IMG/VR virus record: IMGVR_UViG_3300048930_000918
DNA from: a virus
Taxonomy: Duplodnaviria > Heunggongvirae > Uroviricota > Caudoviricetes
DNA: 64,000 nucleotides
Strand: one strand, 5' to 3'
Each line of letters starts with the position of its first letter. The first letter of the stretch is position 1. Of this stretch, positions 2,832-33,543 are shown piece by piece. The translations under genes were made by a program, and so were the position numbers. The notes beneath the pieces were generated by a model. It ran no database searches, was not told the DNA's origin, and saw only the letters and a program-made list of their open reading frames with translations.

Positions 2832-3109
2832 TTCTTTTTACCTCTAGCGTTAATCATAACAATATACACGGCTTTTGCCCAATCGTCCCAGTTTTTAAAC
2901 TGATCAGTTTTTTTAGAACCTTTTGTAATTGTAGCTGATGGTATACTATTTGTTCTAAATATACCAACACCAGCTATTTTATTAGCCCATTCCTGCCATT
3001 CTTCACCTGCCCTTGGCACTGGTAAACGCTCATTTTTATAATTTTTTATAAGCTCTGCTGACCATTTCTCAAAAGTTATATATTTAGGAAAGGGTAAATT
3101 ATTAATCAT
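2828..3109 (-). CDS. hypothetical phage protein (93 aa)
   Basis: ORF track. Shows the 4-nt overlap coupling typical of this operon. Confidence 0.4.
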   Translation of the reverse strand: MINNLPFPKYITFEKWSAELIKNYKNERLPVPRAGEEWQEWANKIAGVGIFRTNSIPSATITKGSKKTDQFKNWDDWAKAVYIVMINARGKKK

Positions 3110-4725
3110 TGATTACTTCCTTCTTTATAATTAATAAGTATTGTACCGACATTATAAGGGTAAACACAAGTAAAAGTAACAGTCATAAATCTAGCTGAGA
3201 TTCTTAAATCTATTTTACCCGGTGATATTTCAGGATATAGATTATAATTAAGAGGTGTAGTTAATGTTCTAGGGGTACTTGCGTATTTTTTATAACTAAC
3301 ACCTATAATAAGTTGATCGTTAATTGTTCTAGTATAACCGGCTGGAGCTGGAAAATCAGGTTCTATTTGATCTAAAACTATATATTTATCAATAGCGTTA
3401 CCATTTTTAGCCGGATTAAATGCAACAAAACCGAAATAAGGAGTTGTAAAGAAAGAAAAAATATTTTTTTGAATACCACCTAGTCTTACTTCATTGTAAC
3501 CTGTTTCTTGTTTCCATATTGATTTATAACTATTTATTAGGTTATAAGGATAATTAGCACAACTATCACCATAACTAAAAATATCACCGGTAGCTTCATA
3601 GACAGTAACGCAATCACGTCTGATAGCCGTATCGTACCAACTATTTTCCCGCACGTTATAAACAAGCTCTCTAGTGCATCCTATTACTGGATCATTTCTA
3701 TTTATTTTTTCAGGATAAGCCCAGCGTATCTCGCCGTAACGGGCTATTTTATATCCATAAATTTTTTGTCTTTTATTTAAGTCAACGTTTTCAAGGAAAT
3801 ATTCAAAATTAACGTCGTTCTTAACACTATCTACTATGCCGTTATAAACAAAAACTCTATCTGTTCCAAGCCAGAAAAAAAGGCTGTCATATTGAACAAC
3901 TGCTCTTGAAGACATTAAAGATGAATTAGTTGTTATTTCCTCTCTTTGGAAATCAACAGGTTGATCTGCATTAGCAGGATCAGCTACGTTGGTTAAATAT
4001 ATAACTGAGTTTTCTGTCCAGAATAAAAAGCTAGGTGAATTAGTACCACCCCTTATACTTGCTCCAAAGATAAGTTTATTTTCTGATATTTTATAAACAC
4101 CTGAATCTCCTCCTGAAAACTCTAAAGGGTTTCTTGTTCTACTTCTAATAATTGTGCCATTATTACCATATAAGTATAAACAAGGATTGGAAAATAAAAT
4201 TCCACCTGATACAATGTTATTAGTATTACCCGGTATCAGTCCATCGATATAGCCTTGAAAACTATCGTCTTGTAACATACTTTTCCAGTATAAAGTACCA
4301 TTATTAGAACTAAGTATATTATCTCCATTGGAAATAGAAAGTAATGCTAAATAAGGATTACCATCTTGTCCGATAAATTTTGCTGATTGCCATGTTCTGT
4401 TTTGATCATTTGTTAAAAATAAATCCTCTTGTCCTGTATCCGAACCTAAAACAGCAATATCATCGCTAACAGTATTTAGATCAGTAATGCACCTATGTAC
4501 TTGATTGTGTGATGCGTAAATAAGTATATAATTATTGGCCGTATTATAAATAGTTAAAAAGTTAGGTGTAATATTATTTATAGGACGATGAATTTCCTTA
4601 TTACCTTTCATCTTCTTTATTTTACCGCCAACAAATCTTATCCATTGACCATCAATGCAATATTCATCTTGAAACTCAGTACCGTCTCTTTGTATTCCTG
4701 TTTTATATACTAAAGGTATGCGCAT
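3106..4725 (-). CDS. hypothetical phage structural protein (539 aa), possible tail component
   Basis: ORF track. Lies in the structural operon and shares start/stop with the neighbouring ORF at 4725. Confidence 0.5.
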   Translation of the reverse strand: MRIPLVYKTGIQRDGTEFQDEYCIDGQWIRFVGGKIKKMKGNKEIHRPINNITPNFLTIYNTANNYILIYASHNQVHRCITDLNTVSDDIAVLGSDTGQEDLFLTNDQNRTWQSAKFIGQDGNPYLALLSISNGDNILSSNNGTLYWKSMLQDDSFQGYIDGLIPGNTNNIVSGGILFSNPCLYLYGNNGTIIRSRTRNPLEFSGGDSGVYKISENKLIFGASIRGGTNSPSFLFWTENSVIYLTNVADPANADQPVDFQREEITTNSSLMSSRAVVQYDSLFFWLGTDRVFVYNGIVDSVKNDVNFEYFLENVDLNKRQKIYGYKIARYGEIRWAYPEKINRNDPVIGCTRELVYNVRENSWYDTAIRRDCVTVYEATGDIFSYGDSCANYPYNLINSYKSIWKQETGYNEVRLGGIQKNIFSFFTTPYFGFVAFNPAKNGNAIDKYIVLDQIEPDFPAPAGYTRTINDQLIIGVSYKKYASTPRTLTTPLNYNLYPEISPGKIDLRISARFMTVTFTCVYPYNVGTILINYKEGSNQ

Positions 4726-5411
4726 TAATTATTAGCTCTTATTACGGTTCTATCAGCACTTCTATCAGTATTCATCCTATTAATTGTCTCTAGTTCCTGA
4801 TCAAACAATGATTGATATTTATTACGTTTTTCTTCATCATCTAAAAATAAACATGCCTCAATTAAACATGAATAAAGAAGTAGGTTAGGATAACGCTGAG
4901 TAAGGAAATTAACGGGATAGTCTTGATTAAATAAAGGAATACCTTGATATATAATATCAAAATTATAAATAGCATCGCTTGTAGGAGCGAAAAACCATAC
5001 AAAATTACCATAAGTATTTGCTAAGCTATTATTGTTAAGATTTTGGGTATGATCAGCATAATATTTTGGTTTACTTCTTTGTGTATTTTGATATAAAGGC
5101 CAATAGGTTCTGCAAAAATCATAAGACCTTTGTTGAAGAAAGCTTACATTGTTATTAGAATCAATCATTTGAACGCTAATTGTATTTAACCAATTAGCGG
5201 GTTTTTTTAAAATAAATGTTCCAGGTGGTATATTTCTAAATGTTGTTATAATCTCAAAACCCAAATCCTTGGCGTTATTATAAATCCTTATTATCCCTTG
5301 TTGAATTAAATATGGTATTTGGTCAACAAAAGGATTATCTGTCCTAAGCATGTAGGTTTGCAGAGTTTCAATTAGAATAGGATATGTAAGGGTATAATTG
5401 GTATTAGACAT
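4725..5411 (-). CDS. hypothetical phage protein (228 aa)
   Basis: ORF track. First gene of the leftmost minus-strand sub-operon, diverging from the plus-strand gene at 5491. Confidence 0.45.
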   Translation of the reverse strand: MSNTNYTLTYPILIETLQTYMLRTDNPFVDQIPYLIQQGIIRIYNNAKDLGFEIITTFRNIPPGTFILKKPANWLNTISVQMIDSNNNVSFLQQRSYDFCRTYWPLYQNTQRSKPKYYADHTQNLNNNSLANTYGNFVWFFAPTSDAIYNFDIIYQGIPLFNQDYPVNFLTQRYPNLLLYSCLIEACLFLDDEEKRNKYQSLFDQELETINRMNTDRSADRTVIRANN

Positions 5412-5490: not shown

Positions 5491-5898
5491 ATGAAATCAG
5501 CAGCTAAAATTCCATTTAAAGGTAAAAAGACTCCTTATAACCTAAATGAGGTTGATGTTAACCTTTTACTTAAAAATCCTTCTCATATTCGTAAGGTAGT
5601 TAAAGGTAATTATAAGGAAGAAAGTAACTATGACGAGGATGAGAGTGAGGAAGAGGAAGAGGAAGAGGAAGAAGGTGAGGATGATAAACTAGAATCCCAT
5701 ATGAAGCGTTATATTACCGAGTATTTTGATAACAAATACAATAAGGAAAGAGATCAGCGTAAAAAAGTAAAGCAGAGATTCGATTTCATAGATAATTATA
5801 TACCTAAATTTCCATATAACGCAGTTACAGTCGGTAAAACTTTAACAGAAATAAAAGACGAAGTGCAAAAACGTCGTAAATTAAAAAATAGCAAATAA
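5491..5898 (+). CDS. acidic poly-Glu protein (135 aa); paralog of 55235..55657
   Basis: ORF track. Conserved N-terminus (KIPFKGKKTPYNLNEVDVNLLLKNPSHIRK) shared with the ORF at 55235..55657. Contains a run of 9 Glu and an overall acidic stretch (DEDESEEEEEEEEEGEDD). Confidence 0.55.
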   Translation: MKSAAKIPFKGKKTPYNLNEVDVNLLLKNPSHIRKVVKGNYKEESNYDEDESEEEEEEEEEGEDDKLESHMKRYITEYFDNKYNKERDQRKKVKQRFDFIDNYIPKFPYNAVTVGKTLTEIKDEVQKRRKLKNSK

Positions 5899-6105
5899 TA
5901 AAATAAAAATATTTACAAAACTTTCATAATTTCTTTGTTTTTCTTCCTCTAATCTTAAATTAATGACAGGTACTATTATACCATTAACTATTAAGATATA
6001 AGTTATTAGTTTATAATTAGGTTTTTGTTTATAGAAATACTTATGTTTAAGTATTATAAAATATAGTGATAATCATTATTTTTATTATCAAAACTAAATA
6101 ATACA

Positions 6106-6297
6106 TTAATGATCCAAATAAGGGTTAGGGCATAAATCAGTCATCATCACACAAAGCGCTCCGACTATTTCTGCAATTAATATAAGATTATCTGTCTCAA
6201 TAAATAATAGCCTAGCTAATATTATAAGGATGAAGATGTTTTTAATAAAACTGGCGTTAGATGCTATTAAATTAAAAAAATTCTTCATAGATAACAA
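6106..6297 (-). CDS. small hydrophobic two-helix protein (63 aa); member of a 3-copy family
   Basis: ORF track. Hydrophobic, with the core ARLLFIETDNLILIAEIVGA shared with small ORFs at 54579..54758 and 55083..55238. Confidence 0.4.
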   Translation of the reverse strand: MLSMKNFFNLIASNASFIKNIFILIILARLLFIETDNLILIAEIVGALCVMMTDLCPNPYLDH

Positions 6298-6566
6298 CTA
6301 AAACTTGAGGAGCAAATTGATTTTTAATCTATTGCTCCATAACAGAGAATAATATAATAAGAAAATTTGTATTTGTCAAATTAAAGAAACATTTTGTTCC
6401 CTTAGAAATAAAAAATGTTTCTTTAAGAGTCTAATAACCTTGTAATATTTTAGCAACAGTTAACAACGTATTTATTAATAATTATTTTTTGTATATAAAT
6501 AATTATTGCAATAGAACATAAATAATTATATATCTTAGTTATATTTCAACTAAAAGAGGACTAAAT

Positions 6567-6773
6567 ATGAATTACATATTAAATAGAACACAGAAAATAT
6601 TTAATGCTATCGATAAATTGAAAGAAACAGGTGAACTCACAGAAGATGAGACAACATTTATTAAAAGCCTATCGGCAATGGAACTATCATACATTAGTGA
6701 TGTATTATACCATGCTTATGATTATAAAACAGCTGCTACACTATGGGAGATAATTAAGGATAAGGGGGAGTGA
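6567..6773 (+). CDS. hypothetical protein (68 aa)
   Basis: ORF track. Preceded by the junction motif AAAAGAGGACTAAAT-ATG. Confidence 0.35.
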   Translation: MNYILNRTQKIFNAIDKLKETGELTEDETTFIKSLSAMELSYISDVLYHAYDYKTAATLWEIIKDKGE

Positions 6774-6774
6774 T

Positions 6775-7251
6775 ATGAGAAAATATTTACTGATAATTTT
6801 ATTGTTACCAATTAATTGTTGGGCTAGTTCGGAAACAAATACTTTTAGTGCTATTTGTGAAGTGCAAAAAACTGTTCATGTTCCAATAGGTAACAATGAT
6901 AATAAACCGGAAGCTACTTTTGAATTAGATGAGAAACCTACGGGCGAAACTTACAGGTTAATTATTAATAAAAAAGGTAGAATTAATATTGAGTATAAAT
7001 CAAAAGCAAACCCTTTCTTAGATTGGGATTTAATAAGTGAAATGAAAAAAGACAATGTTAGATTTAACATGCTTAGAGATGAAAAGTATAACCTGGTATT
7101 TATGTTAACATATTTACCTTTTCAAATACGAACCTTTTATTTTGATTTAGATACATCCGGTAATGGATTTTTATCAATTGTTGAAAGTCGCTGGGTTGGT
7201 ATTGTTAAGTATCAAGGTTTAACCTTTTGCATATGTAAAACAAAAAGATAA
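6775..7251 (+). CDS. secreted/exported protein with N-terminal signal peptide (158 aa)
   Basis: ORF track. N-terminus MRKYLLIILLLPINCWASSE is signal-peptide-like. Start is 2 nt after the upstream stop. Confidence 0.45.
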   Translation: MRKYLLIILLLPINCWASSETNTFSAICEVQKTVHVPIGNNDNKPEATFELDEKPTGETYRLIINKKGRINIEYKSKANPFLDWDLISEMKKDNVRFNMLRDEKYNLVFMLTYLPFQIRTFYFDLDTSGNGFLSIVESRWVGIVKYQGLTFCICKTKR

Positions 7252-7256
7252 ATATT

Positions 7257-7469
7257 ATGGATAACTTTTTCAGAAAAATATGTGATTTTTTTATAGGTAT
7301 ATATGGAGTAACAGGAATTTTATTAGCGTTAGCCGCTGGTAGTTTTTATTGGTTCATGCGCATCGCTATTATAATATTCTTAATAGTATTGGTTTTTAAA
7401 TCACTAGGTCTTTTATTGACCATATTTATAATAATATTGTTATTAATTTTCTTTAGAGATGATGATTAA
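7257..7469 (+). CDS. small two-TM membrane protein (70 aa), holin-like topology
   Basis: ORF track. Two hydrophobic segments followed by a charged C-terminus (FRDDD). Confidence 0.4.
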   Translation: MDNFFRKICDFFIGIYGVTGILLALAAGSFYWFMRIAIIIFLIVLVFKSLGLLLTIFIIILLLIFFRDDD

Positions 7470-11519: not shown

Positions 11520-14500
11520 TTAAATAATTCCAAAATAAATAGCACTGATAGATACGTTTTTAGCAGTAAGTGTTCCGCTAATAGCTCCTCCGGTACTATT
11601 AGATGCTGAGTAGTATAACTCAAAAGTGTCAAGATTAGAAATATTAGTTACAACACTAAATGATAAATATGCGTAATTACCGCTATAGCTAATTGAACTC
11701 ATTATATCAGTACCATTTTTATATAAAAAATACTTCTGATAAGCACTAGATGAAGTATGATAACTTACAATCGATACATTTATAAGTGCTCTGTACGTTT
11801 TATTTAAATTAGACGTAAATAAAGTAGGTGTATTAGGAGCTGCTCCTGTGTTAAAATTAGTTATGTCTCTATAAATCACATTGCTTGATTGAACAACTAC
11901 GTTAGATGTTGAACCTGAAGTAGAAACACCTATATTATTATCTGTCCATAGAAGACTTATTGAAGGTGGATTATCGATTATATTAGCACAACTAATTCTT
12001 CCGGTGCCTTCACCTACTATTAAATCCGTTCCATTTATACCTAAATTACAAGTATTGCTTGCGCTAGCTATAGAACCTGCTCCTATTGCTATTGCGTTTG
12101 TATAATTAACATCGGCAACATTTGCCTCTGATCCTATTGCTATATTAGTACTTCCTGTTTCATTACCAAAGAGGGCTCTGTACCCCAAAGCTACGTTATT
12201 AGAACCGGATGTATTATAATATAATGCTTCACGACCAATGGATGTGTTATATCCCCCTGTGGTATTTGAAAATAAAGATTGATAACCTAATGATGAGTTG
12301 TTTATTCCGTTAGTATTTGAATTTAATACTTGATAACCGATCGCCGTATTGTCATTACCATTTATATTAGACAACATTGACTCATGACCGAATACAATAT
12401 TTCTAGCACCTATAGTATTAGATGAAAGAGAACTAAATCCAAAAGCCAAATTACCATTACCTGTAGTATTACCTTGTAAAGCCTCTAGACCAAAAGCGTA
12501 ATTACTTTGACCGGTAGTATTGTTGTATAGAGCTTGCCATCCAAATGCTAAATTACCACTTGCTGTTGTATTAGCTTGCAAAGCTTCTTCACCGATAGCA
12601 ATGTTATAGTTTCCTGTTGTATTACTATATAAACTTTTTGTACCTATACCTAAATTAATATACCCTGTTGTATTACTATAAAGAGCTTGATATCCAAAAG
12701 CTGAATTTGAATATCCTGTTGTATTAGCTTGCATGGCTTGATAACCTAATGCCGAGTTACTTTCTGCACTGGTATTATTAAACAAAGAATTAAATCCAAC
12801 AGCAGTGTTATAAGACCCTGTTGTGTTATAATACAGAGCTTGATAACCAAAAGAACTGTTATGTCTACCTGTACTATTTGTAAATAGCGTATTATGTCCA
12901 AACGCACTATTAGCTATAGCCGTTGTGTTATTACGTAAGCTATTGAAACCGAATGCGCAGTTATTATAACCAGTTGTATTAGAAAATAAGGATTGGTAAC
13001 CAAAAGCATTGTTTGTCGAACCTTCAGCAGTACTATCATCATATGTAACATTATTATAAAGAGCTTGGTAACCGAAAGCAGAGTTATACAAACCTAAAGT
13101 GTTAGAATATAAAGCTTGATAACCAAAAGCCGACAAATTAGATTTTAAATTTCTATATAAAGATTGATATCCAAAAGCTACGTTATTACTAGTCGATACG
13201 TTATAATAAAGAGCCTCTGTTCCAAAAGCTGAGTTATTAGAACCTGATTCATTACTATATAATGTTTGATAACCATAAGCACAGTTACCTGATGATCCAA
13301 TATTATTTGTTAAAGACGAATTACCCACAGCACAGTTTGTACCTCCAGTAGTATTTGAATTTAATGAGTTTATACCATAAGCAACGTTGTTATTTCCATT
13401 TGTGTTAGAAGCTAAACTTTGTAACCCGTAAGCACAATTAAAAGAACCTCCTGAATTAGATATAAGAGATTGTGAACCAAAAGCACTATTAGCCGTTCCG
13501 CTTGTATTGGAAGTTAATACATCATAGCCGAATGCACAATTATTAGACCCATTTATATTACTATATAAAGCTCTATAACCAAAACCACTATTATTACCTC
13601 CTATTGTAGTAGAATATAGGGTTTGATACCCAAAAGCTGAATTGTTATCTGCTGATATATTAGAAAAAAGGCTTTGGTAACCAAAAGCTGAATGACCTTC
13701 ACCATTAGTGTTTTTATTCAAGGATTGATACCCAAAAGCTGAGTTGTTGTTAGTAGTATTATCTTTTAATGCTTCTACCCCAAAAGCGGCATTATTGCTT
13801 CCTCCCACATTAGAATGTAAAGAATTATAACCATATGCGCAATTATTGCTTCCTGATACATTAGAATATAAAGACTCAACCCCAAAAGAAGAGTTGCAAT
13901 CACTTCCTACGTTAGAAAAAAGAGAGCTATTACCGAACGCAGAATTATTATCACCTGTTGTATTAGAAAAAAGACTTTGATATCCATATGAGCTGTTACT
14001 TGCACCTATTGTATTTGAATACAAACTTTGATTACCAAAAGTAGAGTTATAACTAGCCGATACGTTAGAAAAAAGAGATTCTGTTCCAAAAGCACAATTA
14101 TATTCACCTGTAGTATTTGAATATAAAGTATGGTAACCTAAAGAAGAATTATTACTAGCAGTAGTTGAAGAATATAAAGCCCTATCACCAACAGCAACAT
14201 TACAACCACCTCCTATATTAGCTCTTAAGGATTGATAACCTATTGCTGTGTTAAAATCCCCGTCTACATTTGAATATAAAGCTTGATATGAATATGCCGA
14301 ATTATGTTCACCTATTGTATTAGAATATAAACTTTGATAACCGAAAGAAGAATTGTTACTACCGGAAACATTTGAGTTAAAAGCTTGAAATCCAAATGCA
14401 CTATTAGCTGTTCCTGACGTATTGAACTGTAAAGCCTGATAACCGAATGCTGAATTAAAACTATTAGTGTTGTAAAAAAGGCTTTGTGTTCCAAAAGCCG

Positions 14501-16007
14501 AATTACCATTACCTATTAAGTTATTACGTAATGTTTCTAATCCGAAAGCAACGTTATCACTACCTCCGGTATTATTTAACAAAGAATCTATACCGAAACA
14601 ATGATTGTCATTACCTGTAGTATTTGCGTTACCTGCATTTATACCTAAAAATATATTATTACTTACATTTTTTAATGTAACATTAGACCAGTTAGGGCTT
14701 GTCGAAGCTCCTGATATAAATAACCTATTAGCTAGAACAGGAACAGCCAAACTAACAATGGAATCACTAGCTCCGCCTATTAAAACTGAGTTATTTGTAA
14801 CGTTTTGAATAGCTACGTTAGTTAAACCTAAATTAGCTCTTGATGTAGAAACGTCATCAACATCAGATAAATTATTAAGTACTTGTAAGAAACTAGAAGG
14901 CCCGTATGCAAATTTTATAAAACTTATAGGGTCTGTTCCAACTGTTGTAACAACAAGTGTCTCAAGCCAAATAGTAGTATAGTTTATAGTACCTACTTCG
15001 ACAGGTATAATTGTCCCCGGATGTATCTCAATATCAGTGTCATAATCAGTAGAACGAGTTAATACCCATGCCGTTGAACCATCACCGACAACTGTTACAA
15101 CGTAGATACCATTTTCATATTGAGTGGTTTGATCTTTAACAAGAATCCTATCATTAACGCTAACAGCTTCATCATCAATTACTAATGCAGCTAAAGCACC
15201 TGAATTAGTAAGTGTAGCACCTACTCCTGATGTACCATTGCTATAAGTACCCGTTAAATTAGCTGTAGTAGCTGCGTAACAAGGAGCTCTAAAACTAAAA
15301 CCGGCAGCAATAGCGTCCACATAACCTTTATTTGCGGCTTGTTGATCCAATACCGGAGCTGGTACAAGTAATGGTACGTCATTTGCAAAAGTAACAGTTG
15401 TATCGGTTCCACCTGTGTTTTCAACAGTAAATACGTTTTGAACTGATCCTAAATTGTTAATCAAATTAAAATTAAAAGTTCCGTATTCCGTGTTTAAATA
15501 AGGAGTATCTTGTAAAAATTGATATTTATAACCGTTATTATTTACAAAATTAAACTCTGTTAAAGAAGATTCCCCAGGATCATTAGCATTAAAATTATTT
15601 AATAAATTAAAAGAAACAGGTTGAACCGCTACTGCGCTGTAAGAAATAGTTTGAGTCGAACCTTGTACGTTTATAACAGGAGGTACTGTTATAGGTACAT
15701 TAAAAGTTATTGTATTATCGTTATTAAAACTAATAAAATCAAATCCGGTAGGACTTGCTCCAACGTAACTTTGAATTGTTAATTTACCAATAGTATCGGT
15801 ATCATTAGTAGCGTGAATCCACCTAAAACCCGATAAAGTATTATTCCTAAATTCAAAACTTGTTTGAGGTGTAATTAAACTTGTCGGAACAAACAGGTTT
15901 TGTAACTGAAACGAAGAAGCAGGTTGATTGAAAATAAATTGTTGTGTATCCCCAAGGATGGATAACGCAGGTGTTATCCCGGATACTGTTATACTGCTCA
16001 TGGCCAT
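11520..16007 (-). CDS. giant tail fibre / adhesin-like protein (1495 aa) with a beta-solenoid-type repeat array
   Basis: ORF track. About 45 tandem 17-residue repeats with consensus N-S-A-F-G-Y-Q-[AS]-L-x-S-N-T-x-G-x-x over roughly aa 470-1250. Distinct N- and C-terminal domains. Positioned beside the coiled-coil fibre gene. Confidence 0.7.
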   Translation of the reverse strand: MAMSSITVSGITPALSILGDTQQFIFNQPASSFQLQNLFVPTSLITPQTSFEFRNNTLSGFRWIHATNDTDTIGKLTIQSYVGASPTGFDFISFNNDNTITFNVPITVPPVINVQGSTQTISYSAVAVQPVSFNLLNNFNANDPGESSLTEFNFVNNNGYKYQFLQDTPYLNTEYGTFNFNLINNLGSVQNVFTVENTGGTDTTVTFANDVPLLVPAPVLDQQAANKGYVDAIAAGFSFRAPCYAATTANLTGTYSNGTSGVGATLTNSGALAALVIDDEAVSVNDRILVKDQTTQYENGIYVVTVVGDGSTAWVLTRSTDYDTDIEIHPGTIIPVEVGTINYTTIWLETLVVTTVGTDPISFIKFAYGPSSFLQVLNNLSDVDDVSTSRANLGLTNVAIQNVTNNSVLIGGASDSIVSLAVPVLANRLFISGASTSPNWSNVTLKNVSNNIFLGINAGNANTTGNDNHCFGIDSLLNNTGGSDNVAFGLETLRNNLIGNGNSAFGTQSLFYNTNSFNSAFGYQALQFNTSGTANSAFGFQAFNSNVSGSNNSSFGYQSLYSNTIGEHNSAYSYQALYSNVDGDFNTAIGYQSLRANIGGGCNVAVGDRALYSSTTASNNSSLGYHTLYSNTTGEYNCAFGTESLFSNVSASYNSTFGNQSLYSNTIGASNSSYGYQSLFSNTTGDNNSAFGNSSLFSNVGSDCNSSFGVESLYSNVSGSNNCAYGYNSLHSNVGGSNNAAFGVEALKDNTTNNNSAFGYQSLNKNTNGEGHSAFGYQSLFSNISADNNSAFGYQTLYSTTIGGNNSGFGYRALYSNINGSNNCAFGYDVLTSNTSGTANSAFGSQSLISNSGGSFNCAYGLQSLASNTNGNNNVAYGINSLNSNTTGGTNCAVGNSSLTNNIGSSGNCAYGYQTLYSNESGSNNSAFGTEALYYNVSTSNNVAFGYQSLYRNLKSNLSAFGYQALYSNTLGLYNSAFGYQALYNNVTYDDSTAEGSTNNAFGYQSLFSNTTGYNNCAFGFNSLRNNTTAIANSAFGHNTLFTNSTGRHNSSFGYQALYYNTTGSYNTAVGFNSLFNNTSAESNSALGYQAMQANTTGYSNSAFGYQALYSNTTGYINLGIGTKSLYSNTTGNYNIAIGEEALQANTTASGNLAFGWQALYNNTTGQSNYAFGLEALQGNTTGNGNLAFGFSSLSSNTIGARNIVFGHESMLSNINGNDNTAIGYQVLNSNTNGINNSSLGYQSLFSNTTGGYNTSIGREALYYNTSGSNNVALGYRALFGNETGSTNIAIGSEANVADVNYTNAIAIGAGSIASASNTCNLGINGTDLIVGEGTGRISCANIIDNPPSISLLWTDNNIGVSTSGSTSNVVVQSSNVIYRDITNFNTGAAPNTPTLFTSNLNKTYRALINVSIVSYHTSSSAYQKYFLYKNGTDIMSSISYSGNYAYLSFSVVTNISNLDTFELYYSASNSTGGAISGTLTAKNVSISAIYFGII
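12250..14600 (-). repeat. in-frame 51-nt tandem coding repeat array (about 45 units) inside the 1495-aa gene
   Basis: Periodicity is visible in the translated protein (..NSAFGYQALYSNTTG..). Spurious antisense ORFs 14312..14509 and 14605..14808 fall inside it. Confidence 0.7.
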
Positions 16008-17230
16008 AATATTTCTACCCTATCGTGCATTAAATCCCAAAGAAAAGTAAAACTAACTGCGTCAAAATCTTCATCCGGGTTTTGTTGTAAATTCTTAACT
16101 CTATCACCACCCATGTCTAAATCACCGGGTGTTCTTATTGTGTCTATAACCCCTGCTATAGGCGGTCCACCTTCCACAAATCCGGTTATTGTAATATTAG
16201 TAGCTGTTCCTATAGCTGCTTCCAATGTTTGTAAATTAACTCCGTCTGTCGGGTTAACAGGATTAGCTAGATTTATTAATTTATAATTGTAAAAAGAGAC
16301 ATCACCGTCAGCAGGTATGGTGTTTAGTCTTAGATTATCAATTCTATTATTCAAGTCTGTTATTTGTCCATCAATAATAGCTACCTGAGCCTGAAGAGCT
16401 GTTACCGCCGCATCTAAAGCTACTACTTGTGCTTGAAGAGCAGTTACTGCAGCGTCTAATGCTGCAATTTGACCCTGTAATGCTAATATTTCACCTTCTA
16501 TAAAATCTACTTCTAGTTCTAACTCATCAACATCAATCTCAAGTAAACTTAAGTCATCTGACTTTTCTGTAATTGCCTCAAAAGAAGAGTTAAGAGCACC
16601 CCTCCATATTTTACCTCTACCCTCTATTAACGGGTGTTCAACTCCGGTATATACTCCTAAATCCGGTAAGTTACTTTCATCTATTTGCTTTTCAGCCTCA
16701 GGTCTATTGCTTCCGTTACCCCTCCATATTCGGTTATGATCTAATCCAGGTAGATTTCCAGTTTTAATAGTACTTGCAGCAGCAGGTCTTCCACTACTAT
16801 TACCTAGCCATAATTTATTTTCGGCTAGGTTAGCCATATTAGCTAAAGGTAAAATAATAGTTTCTTTAGGTCTGTTATTATCATCACCTATCCAAACATT
16901 ACCTTGTGTTAAATTAGGAAGAGAAGAAGGAGGTATGACACCTGTTGTGCTAACAATACCTGCCGTGTTATATAAAATTCCGTCTGCTAAACTATTTAAA
17001 ACCTGAGCATTCGGTAACTGTGAATTTGGAAAACCTATAATAAAAGAAGCTGAAGCACAAACGCTATAATCACGTCTTAAATTTATTAAATCTAATCTTA
17101 AATCAATTAATGCCGGTGAAGGGGTAGCTATTCCTTGTCTGTTACCAACTAAAGCATAGTTATAGTCAGCAAGAACCCTGCCTGTAACAGGTGATATAAA
17201 ATTATGTAAAATATCAAACTTAATTTTCAT
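15998..17230 (-). CDS. tail fibre-like protein with trimeric coiled-coil segment (410 aa)
   Basis: ORF track. Heptad-repeat segment LQGQIAALDAAVTALQAQVVALDAAVTALQAQVAIIDGQITDL. Overlaps the fibre gene by 10 nt. Confidence 0.55.
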   Translation of the reverse strand: MKIKFDILHNFISPVTGRVLADYNYALVGNRQGIATPSPALIDLRLDLINLRRDYSVCASASFIIGFPNSQLPNAQVLNSLADGILYNTAGIVSTTGVIPPSSLPNLTQGNVWIGDDNNRPKETIILPLANMANLAENKLWLGNSSGRPAAASTIKTGNLPGLDHNRIWRGNGSNRPEAEKQIDESNLPDLGVYTGVEHPLIEGRGKIWRGALNSSFEAITEKSDDLSLLEIDVDELELEVDFIEGEILALQGQIAALDAAVTALQAQVVALDAAVTALQAQVAIIDGQITDLNNRIDNLRLNTIPADGDVSFYNYKLINLANPVNPTDGVNLQTLEAAIGTATNITITGFVEGGPPIAGVIDTIRTPGDLDMGGDRVKNLQQNPDEDFDAVSFTFLWDLMHDRVEILWP

Positions 17231-18300
17231 GCTGTTAGATGCCCTAAAAATGTAGTTATATTATCTATATCATTGCTGAACCATGTTGCAGCTGTATCTT
17301 CGTAATATTCCAATATTTCATCTGTTGTATTATCTAATTCAGTATCTAAATTAATATCCAGGTTAGGTTGAAACCTGTAATAATATAAATTATTAAGGCT
17401 GTAAGTAGCTTCAAGATATAAATTTTTAGAAATTGATTCTTGACCGCCTGTACCGGATATATCAAATAGAGAAAATAAATTAGGTATGCTAATAATAGGA
17501 TCAGCACTCGCTCCAAGTAATGTTGTTGGCGCATCATCGTCAAAACCCATTTCACCAAGTCCTGTTCCTATAGATAAAACACAACATCTATTAGCAGTAG
17601 GTTTTAAAATAGTAGCTAGGTTTCTGCCAAAAGAAGAAGGGTTGTTTTGATAAACTCCTCCATCTATAAATCTACCATTTAAAGTTCCGGGTGCAGTTCC
17701 GTTTAAAACAATAGAAGGTAAGTAAAAAGGAGCAGCTGAAGTAACTAAAGCAACATTACTGATTAATTCGTTTTGTCCAACAAAATCAATATAGTTAGCA
17801 TTAGAACATAATGTATATGTACCTGTGTCTATGTTACTTGTTCCTTCTCTAAAATTAACTTTATAAGTAGGAATAATACTATTAGTAAGTAAATCCTGCA
17901 TTGTCATAGAACCAAACAAAGATTGTATTTGAGAAGTAAGTAATGCTGATCCGTAACCAGTACCTGGATCTGTTGCGTAAAAAGGAACACCTGAAATAGT
18001 TAAAGAATATATTTTATCAGCAGTAGTTGCTACATTAGAGGGAGTGCCGTTTGTGCTGAAAATAAGTTTACCTTGAGTTGTAAATAAAGGAGATAAATCA
18101 TCAGTACTTTTACCGATAGCTAAAGCAAGTGCCATCATACCACCTATGGAAGTGCCGCATATAACATCAAAATATTTCCATAATTCATTAGGATTAATTC
18201 CCCATAACTGAACAAATTGAGATAAGAAATTAAGAGATAGATATCCTCTCTCCCCTCCTCCGTCTAACTCTAATATTCTAAGTGTGTATGGATCAGACAT
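17227..18300 (-). CDS. patatin-like phospholipase (357 aa)
   Basis: ORF track. Oxyanion-hole motif DGGGERG, nucleophile elbow G-T-S-I-G (GxSxG), and catalytic Asp motif IDGGVYQNNP (DGG). ATGA overlap with the downstream fibre gene. Confidence 0.8.
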   Translation of the reverse strand: MSDPYTLRILELDGGGERGYLSLNFLSQFVQLWGINPNELWKYFDVICGTSIGGMMALALAIGKSTDDLSPLFTTQGKLIFSTNGTPSNVATTADKIYSLTISGVPFYATDPGTGYGSALLTSQIQSLFGSMTMQDLLTNSIIPTYKVNFREGTSNIDTGTYTLCSNANYIDFVGQNELISNVALVTSAAPFYLPSIVLNGTAPGTLNGRFIDGGVYQNNPSSFGRNLATILKPTANRCCVLSIGTGLGEMGFDDDAPTTLLGASADPIISIPNLFSLFDISGTGGQESISKNLYLEATYSLNNLYYYRFQPNLDINLDTELDNTTDEILEYYEDTAATWFSNDIDNITTFLGHLTA

Positions 18301-18508
18301 CTAATATGCTACCTATTAAACTTGTATTTTCTTCAGCTTGGTCATCACAACATTTAAAACAACAATCGTACTTATTCTCATTATGAACAACCGGTTTAGT
18401 TGAATGATAAATTTTAGCGGCTATATCTCTTTCCCAATAAAAAATTACTCTATGACAAATATTAAATATAGGTGAAGTTATTAACCTGCAAACACTGAGT
18501 AAAAACAT
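18293..18508 (-). CDS. small Cys-rich protein (71 aa)
   Basis: ORF track. Contains a CCFKCCDD cluster. Confidence 0.35.
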   Translation of the reverse strand: MFLLSVCRLITSPIFNICHRVIFYWERDIAAKIYHSTKPVVHNENKYDCCFKCCDDQAEENTSLIGSILDV

Positions 18509-18518: not shown

Positions 18519-18749
18519 TTAATTATTAACCAATGGTCCTACTGTAAAAGGTCTTGGATTTGTTACAGGTTTAGGATCGTCTTTTACTAAAGGCGTTCTT
18601 AATTGTTCATTAGGTTTATCAAGTTCATCTATCCCTACCCATAAACCTGTCCATATCTTATGATTACCCGCCCATTCATATTGCTTATGTAATTCTTCAT
18701 ACATTTTCCAGCTTCGGTCGCACTGATAACGCCTTTTTTCAATTCTCAT
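18519..18749 (-). CDS. hypothetical small protein (76 aa)
   Basis: ORF track. Overlaps the upstream gene by 11 nt. Confidence 0.35.
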   Translation of the reverse strand: MRIEKRRYQCDRSWKMYEELHKQYEWAGNHKIWTGLWVGIDELDKPNEQLRTPLVKDDPKPVTNPRPFTVGPLVNN

Positions 18750-19824
18750 AATAACTATTTAAATCATATCCTATTGTCATATCAACATTCTCACTATCGT
18801 TAGATGTTGCTAGTGTAAAGACTTCATCATATTGAGCTTTGAAAACATCTGCCATTTCCGGTTTATACTTAACGGAAAGCATCCATGTAAGACCTGCTGC
18901 TAAAGCTGGATACATACGAGCCGGCACTGATGTTGTATTATAAAACTCACCTGCATCGTACATTGTTTTTACAAACGAATACTGTAGCACCAGATAATCG
19001 TTAGTCGGAGTGGGCCAAAGATTAATATTCGGTGATAATGATTTATCAAAATAATAAGTAGTCGGTCTTCCTTGGAGATACTTTTGGGAAAAAGATAAAT
19101 AAGTATCACGGCTAACAGGACTTATTTTTAAATCTATTGTGTTATTTCCAAAATATATTTCCTGTATGTCTAATGTAGCTCCTCCTATTTCTCTAACTCT
19201 ATATGTCATTGCTGATACGGGTGTTATAACATCTGCCCATCTAGTTACTCCTGTCTGATACTCATAAGGATGAGTCCAATCAACATTTAAAGTTGACCAG
19301 TTAGCATTATCGTTAGAATATTCAATGACTAAATTATAATTAGTGTTTGTATTTGACCTAACACCTATAAACGTGATCGATTTAGATACACCCGGTCCAT
19401 ACGTATAAGATATATTGCCGTCAGCAACGTTTTGAACGCATGAAGTGGAAAAGTCATTGTCAAAAGCAGATAGAGGATTACCGCCTCCATTGTTATCATA
19501 TGTATTCGCTGTATTTGATTGTGCTGTTCCATTTAATTGTCTTGTAAAAGTTCTCTGTAATACCTCTAGAATATCTGTAATTGATGTACCAAGTGTATAT
19601 CTGGATTGTCCCGTATTTAGAGGTAAATACTCTTTGTTTATTGTCCAAAGATTAATGCTCTTACTAATCCAGTCAAGAAGAAGAAAATTAAGACTTCTTC
19701 TTGCTGATTGTAGTTGAACAGGTACTAATTGATCACCGGCAAAACCGATTCTCTCAAAACATTCGAGAATAAGATCATCGTTTTCAAGTGATTGAAAATT
19801 ATAAGTACCTGATACAATAGCCAT
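18739..19824 (-). CDS. putative tail tubular protein A / adaptor (T7 gp11-like N-terminus) (361 aa)
   Basis: ORF track. The N-terminal segment (ILECFERIGFAGD...ARRSLNFLLLDWISKSINLWTIN) resembles the T7 gp11 N-terminus as I recall it (ILASIGEP...ARRILNKINRQIQSRGWTF). This is an unaligned, from-memory comparison. Confidence 0.4.
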   Translation of the reverse strand: MAIVSGTYNFQSLENDDLILECFERIGFAGDQLVPVQLQSARRSLNFLLLDWISKSINLWTINKEYLPLNTGQSRYTLGTSITDILEVLQRTFTRQLNGTAQSNTANTYDNNGGGNPLSAFDNDFSTSCVQNVADGNISYTYGPGVSKSITFIGVRSNTNTNYNLVIEYSNDNANWSTLNVDWTHPYEYQTGVTRWADVITPVSAMTYRVREIGGATLDIQEIYFGNNTIDLKISPVSRDTYLSFSQKYLQGRPTTYYFDKSLSPNINLWPTPTNDYLVLQYSFVKTMYDAGEFYNTTSVPARMYPALAAGLTWMLSVKYKPEMADVFKAQYDEVFTLATSNDSENVDMTIGYDLNSYYEN

Positions 19825-28614: not shown

Positions 28615-30159
28615 TTATCTATACCATGCTTGTGTTTCTTCTCCTATATCATCAGGCTCATAATAGTCTTTAGGATTCTTAATACTGCTACCGTCTCTAA
28701 GTACTATCAATGCTTGTGTTAACGTGTCAGTATAGTCCAAACTCCTTGGATTTGGAAAGTAACTGACTTCGTTAACAAATTCATCTGCAAAGTCTTCCAT
28801 CCTATCAGGATTATTAACTTGGGCTGGCATCCATACAACACCAGCTTCAATAAGAGGAGTTATCAACCTAACACGCTGGGTTTTATCACCATGCTTGTTA
28901 GGGATGAATGGAAAACCATTAACCCCAGCCCTTCTTAAATCCTGCAACAACGGCTCACCAGACGCCTTTGCTTCTATTACAATCTTATCTGGCTTCTTAT
29001 ATATTAATCTTTTATTAACTACTTCGCCGACATCCATATAATTATCAGCAAGCCTTTTAATCCTTTCCCTTAGTTCTGGATATTCAAGCCTGCCACGCCA
29101 GCAGGATAATAATATCACATTTGTATTATCGTATCCATCTTGAAATAATCCCCACGTGCTACAAGCAGAGTAAGCACTATCATCATTAGCAGTAAGGGCA
29201 GTATCCCAGCTTTGAATTACATAATCTATTTGAGGTAATCCCCACTTGAATAGCTTAAACCAATGCTTCTTAATAATACCCCCCTCAAGCGGTGCTGGTC
29301 TTTGTTGGTAAAGAGCAGCGTATCCATAAGAGCCTAGTTCTTTCTTAAGCTTCTTAACATCATCAAGCGTTAATCTTTTAGTAAGTAATTCACCATCCTT
29401 TGTTCGTTTATCTTCCCAAGGTTTCCCACGTGTCCAGTACAAGGGAACAGTGGGACGTTTGCTCTCTGGCTCATATTCTAAAGGTAGTATCAGCTTGACC
29501 CATTCATTATTAATGTCGTTAGCAATTACGCAGCCAGATACATCTTTCTCATCACCTCTTTGCTGTACAAGTACTCGCCTATCATTAGGCAAATCGTTAA
29601 GCCTGTTATACCACTTCATCGACCACCAGTTGTTAATACTATCTCTTACAACCTCTGATTCACCTCCTACTACGTTTGGATCATCTGTGAGTTGAATAGA
29701 ACCCCCTTTGCCGATAACAGATGAGCCGACAGAAGTTGATATACGATAACCTAGTTTGTCATTAGCAAAATAACTCTTTGAGTTCTGATCATCTCTTATC
29801 TTGAACAGATTCCCCCAGTTCTCCTGATACCAGTTACTTTGTATTAGAAGTCTGCTCTTATCCGCAATGTCTAATGATAAAGAGTTGGTACATGATGCGC
29901 TTATTATCTTCTCTGTTGGGTCTTTAATCCAAACCCATGCAGGGAACGCAATGCTTATTAAATTTGTTTTACCAAGACGAGGAGGTATGTTTATTAATAA
30001 ATTCTTAATCTCTCTCTTATACACAAGCTCCAGGTGCTCAGCTATAACCTCCAAAAACCATTCATCTACAAACTTGCTATGCCCTTCAATAATTGGCCAT
30101 GCTTGTATGAAGAATGAATATAAACTCTGCTCTGCTCTTTCCTTAAGTGTGAAGATCAT
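28615..30159 (-). CDS. terminase large subunit (514 aa)
   Basis: ORF track. Walker A-like PPRLGKT. C-terminal RNaseH-like nuclease signature (IQSWDTALTANDDSAYSACSTWG). Confidence 0.85.
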   Translation of the reverse strand: MIFTLKERAEQSLYSFFIQAWPIIEGHSKFVDEWFLEVIAEHLELVYKREIKNLLINIPPRLGKTNLISIAFPAWVWIKDPTEKIISASCTNSLSLDIADKSRLLIQSNWYQENWGNLFKIRDDQNSKSYFANDKLGYRISTSVGSSVIGKGGSIQLTDDPNVVGGESEVVRDSINNWWSMKWYNRLNDLPNDRRVLVQQRGDEKDVSGCVIANDINNEWVKLILPLEYEPESKRPTVPLYWTRGKPWEDKRTKDGELLTKRLTLDDVKKLKKELGSYGYAALYQQRPAPLEGGIIKKHWFKLFKWGLPQIDYVIQSWDTALTANDDSAYSACSTWGLFQDGYDNTNVILLSCWRGRLEYPELRERIKRLADNYMDVGEVVNKRLIYKKPDKIVIEAKASGEPLLQDLRRAGVNGFPFIPNKHGDKTQRVRLITPLIEAGVVWMPAQVNNPDRMEDFADEFVNEVSYFPNPRSLDYTDTLTQALIVLRDGSSIKNPKDYYEPDDIGEETQAWYR

Positions 30160-30179
30160 ATAGTTACAGTTAATATATA

Positions 30180-30398
30180 CTACCTCCAGTGTTGTGATAC
30201 ATAACCATGCTTAACCATGTTGTTAAGTTTTTCTATTATATCTTTATCTCTTCTTTGCTGCATAGATTCTTTAAACTTAAAGAAAGCCTCATCATTTATA
30301 ATAAATACCCGCCTTTCTTTAGCGTTGTATTCGTCATATTCTCTATCTAAAAAGTTTACTGTCTCAACCTCTGTATGTATCCTAGTTATTTTAATCAT
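30180..30398 (-). CDS. hypothetical small protein (72 aa)
   Basis: ORF track. Confidence 0.4.
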   Translation of the reverse strand: MIKITRIHTEVETVNFLDREYDEYNAKERRVFIINDEAFFKFKESMQQRRDKDIIEKLNNMVKHGYVSQHWR

Positions 30399-30747
30399 TA
30401 TTCTTTTTAAGTTCTAACTTGGACACAGTATATTTTATCCTTTCATTAGTATTTATTTGGTTAATTAATTGTTGTTTTAAATCTTCAATCCTATAAACAT
30501 CTATATCTTCAATAAGCTTACATATATGATCAACCATTATATTTATCATATCTAAATTATTCGTTTTATTTAAACGATTCTTTAAAATATCAAAACTTAT
30601 ATTTAACCAATCTCTTTTACTATTAAAATAATTAACCTTTTCTTCTTCAGTCATTTTTCTTTTATTAGCAACATCACCTAAACCTAAACCTATAAATATA
30701 TTTTCACCTCCAGTAATGTGTTTTATTTCTTCTTTTTTTGTTTCCAT
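30391..30747 (-). CDS. hypothetical protein (118 aa)
   Basis: ORF track. Confidence 0.4.
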   Translation of the reverse strand: METKKEEIKHITGGENIFIGLGLGDVANKRKMTEEEKVNYFNSKRDWLNISFDILKNRLNKTNNLDMINIMVDHICKLIEDIDVYRIEDLKQQLINQINTNERIKYTVSKLELKKNND

Positions 30748-30753
30748 ATAGTA

Positions 30754-31281
30754 TTACTCATTTTTAATTAATTTAGTTTCTTCCACCACAAAATCAGCAT
30801 CAATTGCCGTCTCACTATCCATACCAAACCCCATGTCTCTACGATATTTATCATAAAGTTTAATATCTATCTCTTTTTGTCTTCTCTGGTTGTCTGTTAA
30901 TGTGTTAATATTAACATTAACCTCAGGTTGATCATGATTCTCTTTCCACCTACCTTGAGTTTTGAGATAGAACACTATAGCACCAGTGTCAGCCTCAGGT
31001 GCTAAGCCCATTGCTTTATCGTGTAATTTCTGCGCAAACCTATATAACTTCTCGGATTTAGCCTTTTTATATACCTCGGCAATCCTTTGATCACGAGCTA
31101 ATAATTTATAAAAAGTTTCCTGATTAATCTTAAAGTAATCTGCTATTTGTAAATAGTTTAAATAAGGTGCTATTTCTGCTAATTGTTCTAGTTGTTCTTC
31201 TGTAAAAACTATCGGAGGTCTCCCGCCTAAATCTACTTCTTTCTTTTCTGACCCCGTAACATTTTTCAGCTTTTTAGACAT
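30754..31281 (-). CDS. terminase small subunit-like protein (175 aa); paralog of 46465..47082
   Basis: ORF track. Lies two genes upstream of TerL. Shares blocks with 46465..47082 (IADYFKINQETFYKLL vs IAGYFGIFKNTFYKIL; FYLKTQGRWKE vs FYLKAFAGWKD; IDIKLYDKYRRDMGF vs LDVKLYSKFCRENGF). Confidence 0.45.
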   Translation of the reverse strand: MSKKLKNVTGSEKKEVDLGGRPPIVFTEEQLEQLAEIAPYLNYLQIADYFKINQETFYKLLARDQRIAEVYKKAKSEKLYRFAQKLHDKAMGLAPEADTGAIVFYLKTQGRWKENHDQPEVNVNINTLTDNQRRQKEIDIKLYDKYRRDMGFGMDSETAIDADFVVEETKLIKNE

Positions 31282-31296
31282 TAACTTCTCTATTCA

Positions 31297-31599
31297 TCAA
31301 TTCTTTAAATACAAATAATCAAATTCATCATTATTATAACAAAATAGTCTATTTTCACTACATACAACCCAGTCACCTAATTTTAATATATGTTGGTTAT
31401 TGCCGTAACGATGTATGCTATCTTTATATAATGCACAAACCACTATTACGTCATTACCCTCATGTAATTTAATCATATTGTCATGAATATATAACTTTAA
31501 CCAGTCTGGATATTCACTAAATCTATCCTCTAGTTTTTTAACATTATCAACATATTGTACAGCTTCCGCTTTACTAAATTTATATTCACACATTGTCAT
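31297..31599 (-). CDS. hypothetical protein (100 aa)
   Basis: ORF track. First gene of the late operon. Confidence 0.4.
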   Translation of the reverse strand: MTMCEYKFSKAEAVQYVDNVKKLEDRFSEYPDWLKLYIHDNMIKLHEGNDVIVVCALYKDSIHRYGNNQHILKLGDWVVCSENRLFCYNNDEFDYLYLKN

Positions 31600-32169
31600 T
31601 TTGTCTTACTCCCTATTTTATCATCATAAGTAGGTTTATTTATAAATTTATCACTTAAATAAGCTATTAATCCCTTCATCTTTATTTCTTCCTTAAATAA
31701 TAGTCTATCATTTCATTTAAACAATTAGTAACTAACCAACTTTCTATATTTAAATCAACATTATTTTTTAAATTCATCGGATCAGCCCAAGGGAATGTCT
31801 TATACATCCAATCGTAACACATAATACTACTATGTTGATTTAAATATTTAATAACTTTTAATCCGAATTGTTTATTAGTAAGTAAAATTTTTTATATATT
31901 TATCTAATTTCTTATAAACTTTTTCATAATCATATGTAGTAAAACTCTCTTCGCCCATATCTTCAAATGTAATTTCCAATTCTTTCCTAGAGTTCATCTA
32001 ATTTCTCAACTATTTGTTTAAAACCAATTAATCCTAAATGATACACATATACTATAAACACCACCAATACTAAATGTTTTGCAGTCAGCAAACTATATAT
32101 CTCATTAGCAGGAAATAATGCCATGATGCAAAACATGTTGATGCTTAAATATATTAGATGGTTCATTCT

Positions 32170-33306: not shown

Positions 33307-33543
33307 TAGTAAAAATATTCCATTGGTATTATAAAAACCCACAATAAACACTGCTTCCTAAAACAACCAAACCCTCTAATTTCTCATTTAAACCTAGTTT
33401 TTAGCATCATATTCACATACTTAGCTACCATACTATATTAAATAGACATTCACGCTTATAAACCCTATTAAAACACGATTTCAAACAGCTGTTACCTTAA
33501 CAACACACATTTAATATTTGTAATAAAAAATAATTTTTAGTTA

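Follow-up and report, generated by a model that had tools for sequence, protein, structure and literature searches.

Patatin-like phospholipases have been described in several settings that bear on the locus analysed here. The phospholipase effectors CapV (AbCapV, PDB 8zr9 and 9jeh; also 9kh6) and CapE (PDB 9iom–9ioq) of cyclic oligonucleotide-based anti-phage signalling systems (CBASS) share a compact single-domain patatin of about 320–360 amino acids (aa). In Wolbachia phage WO, a patatin has been proposed to act as a lysis enzyme, as part of a putative lytic cassette that adjoins the tail genes (PMC9203015). Annotations of MAnkyphage_25.80 of Megaira polyxenophila and of Megaira plasmids already place a phage patatin beside a tail fibre. 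Here, we analyse a patatin-like gene in a 64,000-nucleotide (nt) stretch of a Caudoviricetes genome (IMG/VR record IMGVR_UViG_3300048930_000918), hereafter called the window. The gene lies within a block of virion genes and is paired with a tail fibre gene, and the same pairing recurs across many uncultured phages.

The patatin gene ends inside the start of the fibre gene. Positions 17227–17230 (minus strand) contain the TGA stop codon of the patatin overlapping the ATG of the fibre open reading frame (ORF), confirming the ATGA coupling read in the original prediction. The junctions around the patatin overlap in series, by 8, 4, and 10 nt, the last of these being the overlap of a 1495-aa fibre gene with the 3′ end of the 410-aa gene. 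The N-terminal ~100 aa of the 410-aa fibre protein (approximately nt 16931–17230) form a conserved anchor domain, HNFISPVTGR...PSPxLIDxRLDLxxLR. A coiled coil resembling trimeric ones spans residues ~220–300, and the protein matches the P22 gp26 tail needle (E = 7.7e-6).

A word-indexed search retrieved 440 homologues of the patatin, many from contigs of 54–58 kb, and an exhaustive profile search yielded 172 clusters (50% identity) at E ≤ 1e-30, compared with 13,905 generic patatin matches at E ≤ 1e-3. About 150 loci were gathered in all, and the linkage counts given below refer to IMG/VR loci. Relatives whose patatins are 84, 54, and 47% identical keep the order portal (SU10_portal), capsid, adaptor-like protein, small ORF, patatin, and fibre. 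The patatin overlaps the next gene by 4 nt in 57 of 74 assessable loci and lies at a gap of −1 to +2 nt in 11 more, giving a tight junction in 68 of the 74. The downstream ORFs range from 140 to 1390 aa, and all but five of the 74 (69/74) share the fibre N-domain in their first ~100 residues. Receptor-binding fibres are built in this way, with a constant N-terminal anchor and distal parts that can be exchanged.

The linkage also holds in the opposite direction. When loci are retrieved by the fibre N-domain profile alone, a search that is independent of the patatin and adds many loci to the forward set, the patatin ends at most 30 nt upstream in 74 of 80 cases. The six exceptions form one closely related clade without patatin (L161, L162, L164, L165, L166, and L171), from the same phage lineage. 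In this clade, the fibre directly follows the small upstream ORF, and its N-domain lacks ~13 residues, the IDxRLDLxxLR segment. Loss of the patatin together with this segment would be expected if the two are in contact, and is suggestive only. The same cassette is present on a contig from a Rickettsiaceae metagenome-assembled genome (MAG), with a patatin 54% identical to that of MAnkyphage. The patatin and the fibre N-domain form a portable two-gene cassette, with near-obligate linkage in both directions across phage backbones.

The original prediction described a phospholipase in such a block as unusual. This view has to be tempered, as the arrangement is widespread and the MAnkyphage record (OP381185) already lists a 'patatin' with a neighbouring 'tail Fiber'. 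In the searchable literature, we found no description of the conserved portable two-gene cassette or its abundance, nor of three further properties: an affinity to CapV and CapE without their ligand site, the acidity of the family, and a loss correlated with part of the fibre N-domain. Searches on virion-associated phage phospholipases and on Megaira phage patatins likewise returned nothing relevant.

Near-obligate pairing, translational coupling to the fibre N-domain, and co-loss with its segment are features that a fibre maturation or assembly factor could also show. In this case, the patatin would be a dedicated partner of the fibre, or would add or remove acyl groups on the fibre or a receptor-binding partner, and might or might not stay in the particle. 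The genes of known fibre chaperones, however, usually follow the fibre gene, and their products are not hydrolases; no acyl-acceptor motif was identified either. Furthermore, a pure chaperone would have no need for the strictly conserved lipase active site and the invariant Ser166 and Asn167 described below. We regard a maturation role as improbable.

The assignment of the gene product to the patatins, originally made from three signatures, is borne out. DGGGERG occupies residues 13–19 (nt 18244–18264), GTSIG residues 49–53, and DGG residues 213–215, and the positions of the codons are confirmed (Ser51, nt 18148–18150; Asp213, nt 17662–17664). The Pfam Patatin model PF01734 matches residues 12–221 with 71.3 bits (E = 1.6e-19; gathering cutoff 27.7), which is far above chance level. 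In a profile alignment, Ser51 and Asp213 pair with the catalytic Ser58 and Asp192 of AbCapV. Both residues are invariant in 68 of 68 relatives, as are Gly49 and Gly53. In the oxyanion loop (GGGxRG; Gly14–Gly16, Arg18, and Gly19), the three glycines are present in all 66 ungapped sequences and Arg18 in 66 of 67. With its Ser51/Asp213 dyad intact, the protein is apparently a catalytically competent lipid acyl-hydrolase of the patatin type.

The AlphaFold2 model, calculated from an alignment of 50 family members, shows the patatin α/β fold with a predicted local distance difference test score of 89.2 and a predicted template modelling (TM) score of 0.90. The only disordered stretch of the model is a variable, low-confidence loop at residues 254–262. 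A Foldseek search with this model (probability 1.00) gives TM scores of 0.64–0.69 to CapV (9kh6 and 8zr9), CapE (9ioq and 9ion), and plant patatin (1oxw), which groups the protein with the compact single-domain patatins. We also considered the secreted toxin type, represented by ExoU, VipD, and Rickettsia Pat1 and Pat2, multidomain proteins of more than 500 aa in which targeting domains follow the patatin domain at the C-terminus. This assignment was rejected for a single-domain protein of 357 aa; the TM scores are only 0.28–0.36 to ExoU (4qmk, 4akx, and 3tu3) and VipD (4akf), and the NCBIfam model VpdC has no significant match to the window patatin.

In some relatives (L093, L098, and P0220), the loop at residues ~254–270 is an insertion hot spot with 115–300 extra residues, including Ser/Thr-rich and LG-D-repeat types. 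Two others (P0190 and P0217) carry N-terminal extensions of ~115–125 aa with no recognisable domain. The C-terminus of the patatin is conserved and ends in GHLTA.

The patatin has no transmembrane segment and no signal peptide, indicating that it is made in the cytoplasm. Its isoelectric point (pI) is 4.07, with only 14 lysine and arginine residues in total. Across the family, the pI ranges from 4.05 to 5.35 and lysine plus arginine have a median of 5%, compared with a pI of 6.4–8.6 and 11% in two control CapVs and a pI of 9.35 in the WO patatin. The composition is thus strongly acidic and poor in basic residues, unlike that of its membrane-acting cytoplasmic relatives such as CapV and unlike that of the WO patatin. 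CapV has been reported to bind membranes via basic surfaces (PMC12480259).

Among characterised proteins, the CBASS phospholipase effectors are closest in sequence (PDB matches 9wn1, 9kh6, 8zr9, and 9iom), with 29–33% identity to CapV and CapE. The catalytic Ser and Asp and the oxyanion loop align between these effectors and the window patatin. The PADLOC model PDLC00758 scores 143 bits over residues 6–352, and CBASS_lipase (NF041079), the top NCBIfam match, scores 130.7 bits. These scores are about twice that of the generic Pfam model, so the affinity to CapV and CapE is real. Identity as a CapV equivalog was nevertheless rejected, as the NF041079 score lies below the cutoff of 200.

The ligand site of CapV differs in the window patatin. 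AbCapV contacts cyclic GMP–AMP (cGAMP) through Phe147, Lys149, Asp159, Glu207, and Arg279 (PMC12480259). In a profile alignment to 8zr9, the alignable contacts Phe147, Lys149, Asp159, and Glu207 correspond to Leu164, Ser166, Gln176, and approximately Leu228; the position of Glu207 is extrapolated, as it lies two residues beyond the end of the alignment, and Arg279 falls outside the aligned region and was not placed. The replacements are conserved within the family, with Ser166 in 68 of 68 members and Gln176 in 53 of 68; the adjacent Asn167 is present in 67 of 68. The near-invariance of Ser166 and Asn167 shows that this surface of the patatin is under some constraint, though not one imposed by the AbCapV ligand.

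The observation that the best profile matches are CBASS effector models and the best PDB matches CapV and CapE raises the question of whether the gene is a captured CapV-type effector serving in conflict, either by soaking up cyclic nucleotides as a decoy or sponge, or by acting as a toxin in abortive infection or superinfection exclusion. In addition to the sub-cutoff equivalog score and the replacement of the four alignable cGAMP contacts, the surroundings of the gene argue against this. Two control CapVs, annotated by the Prokaryotic Genome Annotation Pipeline, adjoin a cyclase, a DncV-like CD-NTase (cGAS/DncV-like nucleotidyltransferase) in Klebsiella and an annotated nucleotidyltransferase in Bacillus. 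Among ~50 window ORFs scanned with Pfam and PHROG, no CD-NTase cyclase or other CBASS gene was found; the neighbours of the patatin are virion genes. Unlike CapV and CapE, the window patatin is acidic (pI ~4.4 versus 6.4–8.6), and its gene belongs to a virion operon, where it is coupled to a fibre gene, and not to the early or accessory genes. We therefore consider a CBASS-derived conflict role very unlikely.

The virion block around the patatin has the podovirus-like character that had been proposed, with TerL, portal, capsid, and fibres (Table 1). The location of the patatin within this block, between an adaptor-like gene and the fibre, was read correctly, with two nuances. ORFs of 76 and 71 aa separate the 361-aa ORF from the patatin, and the adaptor assignment of the 361-aa protein falls below the cutoff of PF24175 (26.1 versus 27 bits); the clear SU10-type adaptor is another gene, at 4725–5411. 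Homologues of the 71-aa ORF occur in patatin-bearing and patatin-less relatives alike, and this ORF has no Pfam or PHROG match. In a promoter and terminator scan of the block, promoter-like sites were less frequent than in a shuffled control, intergenic terminators were absent, and no convincing signal of either type separated the genes. We regard it as established that the patatin is co-expressed late with the fibre, in one tightly packed virion operon.

The 1495-aa fibre contains dozens of 17-aa (51-nt) repeats of families D1–D3, of the type NSAFGYQSLYSNTTG, at 12162–14651 of the window. These repeats recall YadA-head-like repeats, and the fibre of one relative shows a faint YadA_stalk match.

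The most similar described arrangement is that of MAnkyphage_25.80 (OP381185.1; UXM65450, 'patatin' beside 'tail Fiber'). Its patatin is 34% identical over the full length and is followed by the same ATGA junction to a 4.5-kb fibre with the same N-domain (MKYDRLYNFISPVTGK...SPVLIDVRQDIIDL), in a phage of the same host genus. The backbones differ: MAnkyphage has 38 kb and annotated T7-like gp11 and gp12 tail tubular proteins, with the cassette right after the terminase, whereas the window phage, of a type with ~56 kb, has a portal and an adaptor of SU10-like character and carries the cassette after the capsid genes. Beyond the cassette, the two share only a toxin–antitoxin pair and two weak matches between small ORFs (E = 1e-6 and 7e-5).

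Phage-like regions of the Megaira polyxenophila plasmids CP113869 and AP017967 (pPCS109) also carry a patatin, with 33–34% identity, inside a homologous virion module. The module of pPCS109 is syntenic with that of the window, with 31% identity for the capsid protein, 40% for the 361-aa protein, 29% for the adaptor, and 37% for the 539-aa protein.

The synteny of the virion module, the replication initiator Rep3, and a transporter–hydrolase gene pair all point to Megaira, in agreement with the intracellular host suggested at the outset. Rep3 shares 87% identity with its counterpart on a plasmid of Ca. Megaira polyxenophila. The pair, a major facilitator superfamily (MFS) transporter and a SpoT-type HD protein, has its best matches in Megaira and then in Rickettsia plasmids, and short DNA stretches of the right-hand part of the window are 84–89% identical to Megaira plasmids. 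These comparisons support Megaira or a close relative, an obligate intracellular bacterium, as the host of the window phage itself, rather than of the wider family. The MAG names of some relatives (Methanofastidiosum sp. HNU60784.1, Bacteroidales, and Cytophagales; the cluster of P0001 with loci L009 and L011) were rejected as host evidence, since they belong to phage-sized contigs that are probably mis-binned. A megablast search of the virion block (11–31 kb) against GenBank phages gave no match, indicating that the window phage has no close sequenced relative there. Exact-protein look-ups yielded a single 2.2-kb contig with DNA for the patatin and no entry for the 797-aa primase-helicase.

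The comparison with WO-type prophages, in which a patatin in a comparable position had been invoked, does not hold up well. In both systems, the phage infects an intracellular bacterium of the Rickettsiales and encodes a small patatin close to its tail genes. WO patatins are only 22–23% identical to that of the window (E = 1e-5 to 3e-2; 24% in a global alignment), are basic, and are not beside a fibre. In WOVitA1, the patatin follows gpD where a P2-like module for a contractile tail has its outer edge, and its neighbours are an ankyrin gene, a small ORF or holin-like gene, and a phospholipase D gene; the small holin-like protein of the WO cassette has a single transmembrane segment. The window patatin is internal to the virion block, fibre-coupled, and without an adjacent small ORF that has a confident transmembrane segment, and membership in the WO lytic cassette was therefore rejected. 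No ankyrin match was found among the patatin neighbours scanned with Pfam and PHROG. The resemblance to WO is loose and generic, with no shared module.

The WO proposal nevertheless corresponds to a second role that can be envisaged for the window patatin, that of a late lysis or egress enzyme outside the particle, degrading the bacterial membrane or membranes from within at the end of infection. It could take the place of a spanin or holin, or assist the exit of particles through host-derived membranes. CapV and CapE kill by cytoplasmic cleavage of membrane phospholipids, a lytic cassette with a patatin has been proposed for WO (PMC9203015), and the window patatin lacks a signal peptide. In addition, no canonical endolysin or spanin is recognised among the ~50 window ORFs scanned, which leaves room for a lysis role. 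Holin-like small transmembrane proteins, however, are encoded elsewhere (7257–7469 and 37218–37656), and neither the 71-aa nor the 76-aa ORF adjoining the patatin has a confidently predicted transmembrane segment. MAnkyphage already carries its own annotated lysozyme and lytic transglycosylase besides the cassette. The acidic family, with its few basic residues, also contrasts with CapV and the WO patatin, and a lysis role would leave unexplained both the tracking of the fibre N-domain across unrelated backbones and the co-loss. We regard it as the main alternative, less probable than the virion reading below, and if the patatin were a late lysis enzyme only, the result would be a modest extension of the WO-phage hypothesis.

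We tentatively favour a fibre-associated virion lipase that acts on a lipid barrier at adsorption or entry, a reading to which we assign somewhat less than an even chance. The patatin would be produced late and at a constant ratio to the tail fibre, and would ride on the virion bound to the conserved ~100-aa N-domain of the fibre. From there, it would attack the outer membrane of Megaira, or a host-derived membrane around or between the bacteria. Its docking to the fibre, or its oligomerisation there, might then replace the cyclic-nucleotide-driven filament switch of CapV and CapE. Circumstantial support for an association with the virion comes from the near-obligate pairing with the fibre N-domain, the correlated loss, and the very acidic composition, and the patatin is also kept in the homologous virion module of the Megaira plasmid pPCS109. 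That the patatin binds the fibre, is present in the particle, and acts on a lipid barrier is inferred, as is the replacement of the switch.

Several observations weigh against a virion lipase. The tight linkage and overlap could reflect co-expression alone, and the correlated loss of patatin and N-domain segment represents a single evolutionary event. Among long patatin homologues, we found no patatin–fibre fusion ('Rosetta stone'); their extra length is due to insertions in the loop, to tandem patatins of plants or bacteria, or to extensions at the N-terminus without a recognisable domain. In the Megaira plasmids, the patatin neither adjoins nor overlaps a fibre gene but follows fibre-like genes and precedes the adaptor. 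No solved homologue was found for the 361-aa protein, nor one for the fibre N-domain on which docking could be modelled. The nearest characterised relatives, CapV and CapE, act from the cytoplasm on the inner membrane, cleaving phospholipids and killing cells (PMC12480259). Finally, Pfam and PHROGs identify no canonical endolysin or spanin among the ~50 window ORFs.

A more specific and doubtful version of the virion lipase is a portable 'armed fibre'. Here, a latent phospholipase of CapV/CapE stock would dock on the IDxRLDLxxLR segment and be switched on by assembly or by a receptor-triggered rearrangement, not by a cyclic nucleotide, and the virions of phages that infect intracellular bacteria would thereby carry a membrane-breaching enzyme. 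The phospholipase A2 of parvovirus VP1u is a capsid-carried lipase that crosses a lipid barrier at entry. It shares only the concept with the window patatin, as it has an unrelated fold (secreted-phospholipase-A2-like, with His/Asp), is part of the capsid protein, and belongs to a eukaryotic virus. If correct, the armed fibre would be the bacteriophage counterpart of this capsid enzyme, with one enzyme lineage used by phages for attack and by bacteria for defence.

Sugars and peptidoglycan are the known targets of the enzymes that tailed phages carry on their virions. To our knowledge, which here rests on general background and limited literature searches, there is no established case of a lipase on a tail fibre. 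An active phospholipase on the particle would be a new class of virion-associated enzyme, and a concrete answer to how phages of intracellular symbionts (Megaira, perhaps other Rickettsiales) handle lipid barriers. It would also link an offensive tool of phages to the anti-phage CapV/CapE family and raise the question of which side invented the enzyme. The cassette is abundant enough (172 clusters and about 150 loci) for interface prediction from paired alignments, and a culturable system exists in Cryptomonas SAG 25.80 with MAnkyphage.

Table 1. Features of the virion block and of the plasmid-like segment (42200–63873) in the window.
Feature	Position (nt)	Strand	Region	Details
539-aa virion structural protein, nozzle-position gene	3106–4725	minus		phrog_3287, E = 3e-14; 33–37% identity to Megaira plasmid proteins
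SU10-type tail adaptor, 228 aa	4725–5411	minus		PF24175, 51.6 bits, E = 2e-13; downstream of fibre genes
Two distal tail genes, 376 and 763 aa	7466–10872	minus		Diverged second copies at 51054–54350
Long fibre/tailspike, 1495 aa	11520–16007	minus		PHROG 23837, 6002, 4636 (virion structural/tail spike), E = 1e-142 to 6.5e-98
Fibre protein, 410 aa	15998–17230	minus		N-domain, coiled coil; weak PHROG tail fibre/needle matches
Patatin-like phospholipase, 357 aa, ATG start	17227–18300	minus		Pfam PF01734; AlphaFold2 model
Small 71-aa ORF	18293–18508	minus		Cys-rich, acidic C-terminus; 8-nt overlap with patatin start
Small 76-aa ORF	18519–18749	minus		Kept in the lineage; 52% identity to a Megaira pPCS109 ORF
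361-aa virion protein	18739–19824	minus		C-terminal half weakly SU10-adaptor-like; phrog_12985, E = 2.9e-21; PF24175, 26.1 bits (cutoff 27)
Major capsid protein, 311 aa	20683–21618	minus		PF25209 Phage_capsid_4, E = 4e-13; phrog_371
Portal, 790 aa	26100–28472	minus		phrog_1216, E = 3.8e-15; homologue in locus L005 has PF23899 SU10_portal
Large terminase subunit TerL, 514 aa	28615–30159	minus		PF17289; 39% identity to Roseobacter phage CRP-901 TerL
Small terminase-like gene	30754–31281		Virion block	phrog_309
Rep3 initiator	48671–49627		Plasmid-like segment	87% identical to Megaira plasmid CP113873
BRO-N antirepressor	49976–50800		Plasmid-like segment	
SpoT-type HD protein	59173–59874		Plasmid-like segment	
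MFS transporter	59787–61121		Plasmid-like segment	
ParA	61728–62330		Plasmid-like segment	
Tyrosine recombinase	62863–63822		Plasmid-like segment	

The part of the window at 41276–64000 suggests that a ~56.3-kb phage is joined to a 22,598-nt Megaira-type plasmid-like segment via a shared 5′ region of the primase gene. Positions 29909–42193 are 99.1% identical to a 56,335-nt contig, which then diverges inside the primase gene into other replication genes. The last 127 nt of the window (63874–64000) repeat 41276–41402 exactly, and these direct repeats bound the plasmid-like segment. The lengths of the contig and the segment add up to 78,933 nt, which equals that of the likely source contig, where a protein 100% identical to one of the window is encoded. 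A length of 127 nt is also a common assembler k-mer size. The joint may be a genuine phage–plasmid cointegrate or a loop made in assembly.

In the plasmid-like segment, a 22-nt unit, CCCAGTAGGGATAGGGTGTRCG, is repeated in tandem about seven times at 46043–46216. The repeats are iteron-like, but the Rep3 gene is ~2.5 kb away, and a second small-terminase-like gene (46465–47082) begins shortly downstream of them. The two small-terminase-like genes, both phrog_309 and located in the phage (30754–31281) and plasmid-like parts, are 36% identical to each other. The diverged copies of the two distal tail genes show 38 and 64% identity to their counterparts, and a 135-aa ORF is duplicated as well (55235–55657 and 5491–5898, 65% identity). 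Homologues of the duplicated tail genes are found in Megaira plasmids, and the second copies may be a spare or alternative host-range cassette. No tRNA genes are present in the 64,000-nt window.

A small cluster on the opposite strand (5491–7469, plus) separates the distal tail genes from the adaptor. One of its products, of 158 aa, may be a lipoprotein, as it has a signal peptide and a Cys (LPINC); another is a very hydrophobic 70-aa protein with two to three transmembrane segments. The proteins of this cluster have no family matches, and it could be a lysis or superinfection-exclusion cassette. At 37218–38308 (plus), two holin-like transmembrane proteins (81 aa with two transmembrane segments and a charged C-terminus, and 63 aa) are followed by a 216-aa protein (37658–38308). 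The latter does not resemble an endolysin; it is highly charged and has only two homologues in 5.8 billion proteins.

The toxin–antitoxin pair shared with MAnkyphage lies at 43967–44465 (plus) and consists of a ribbon-helix-helix antitoxin and a RelE/ParE-like toxin, homologous to the MAnkyphage pair with 67% identity over 39 aa and 31% identity. The early-gene block starts at 34805–36041 (plus) with an HTH_3 regulator followed by an SPFH/Band-7 membrane protein, an unusual cargo for a phage.

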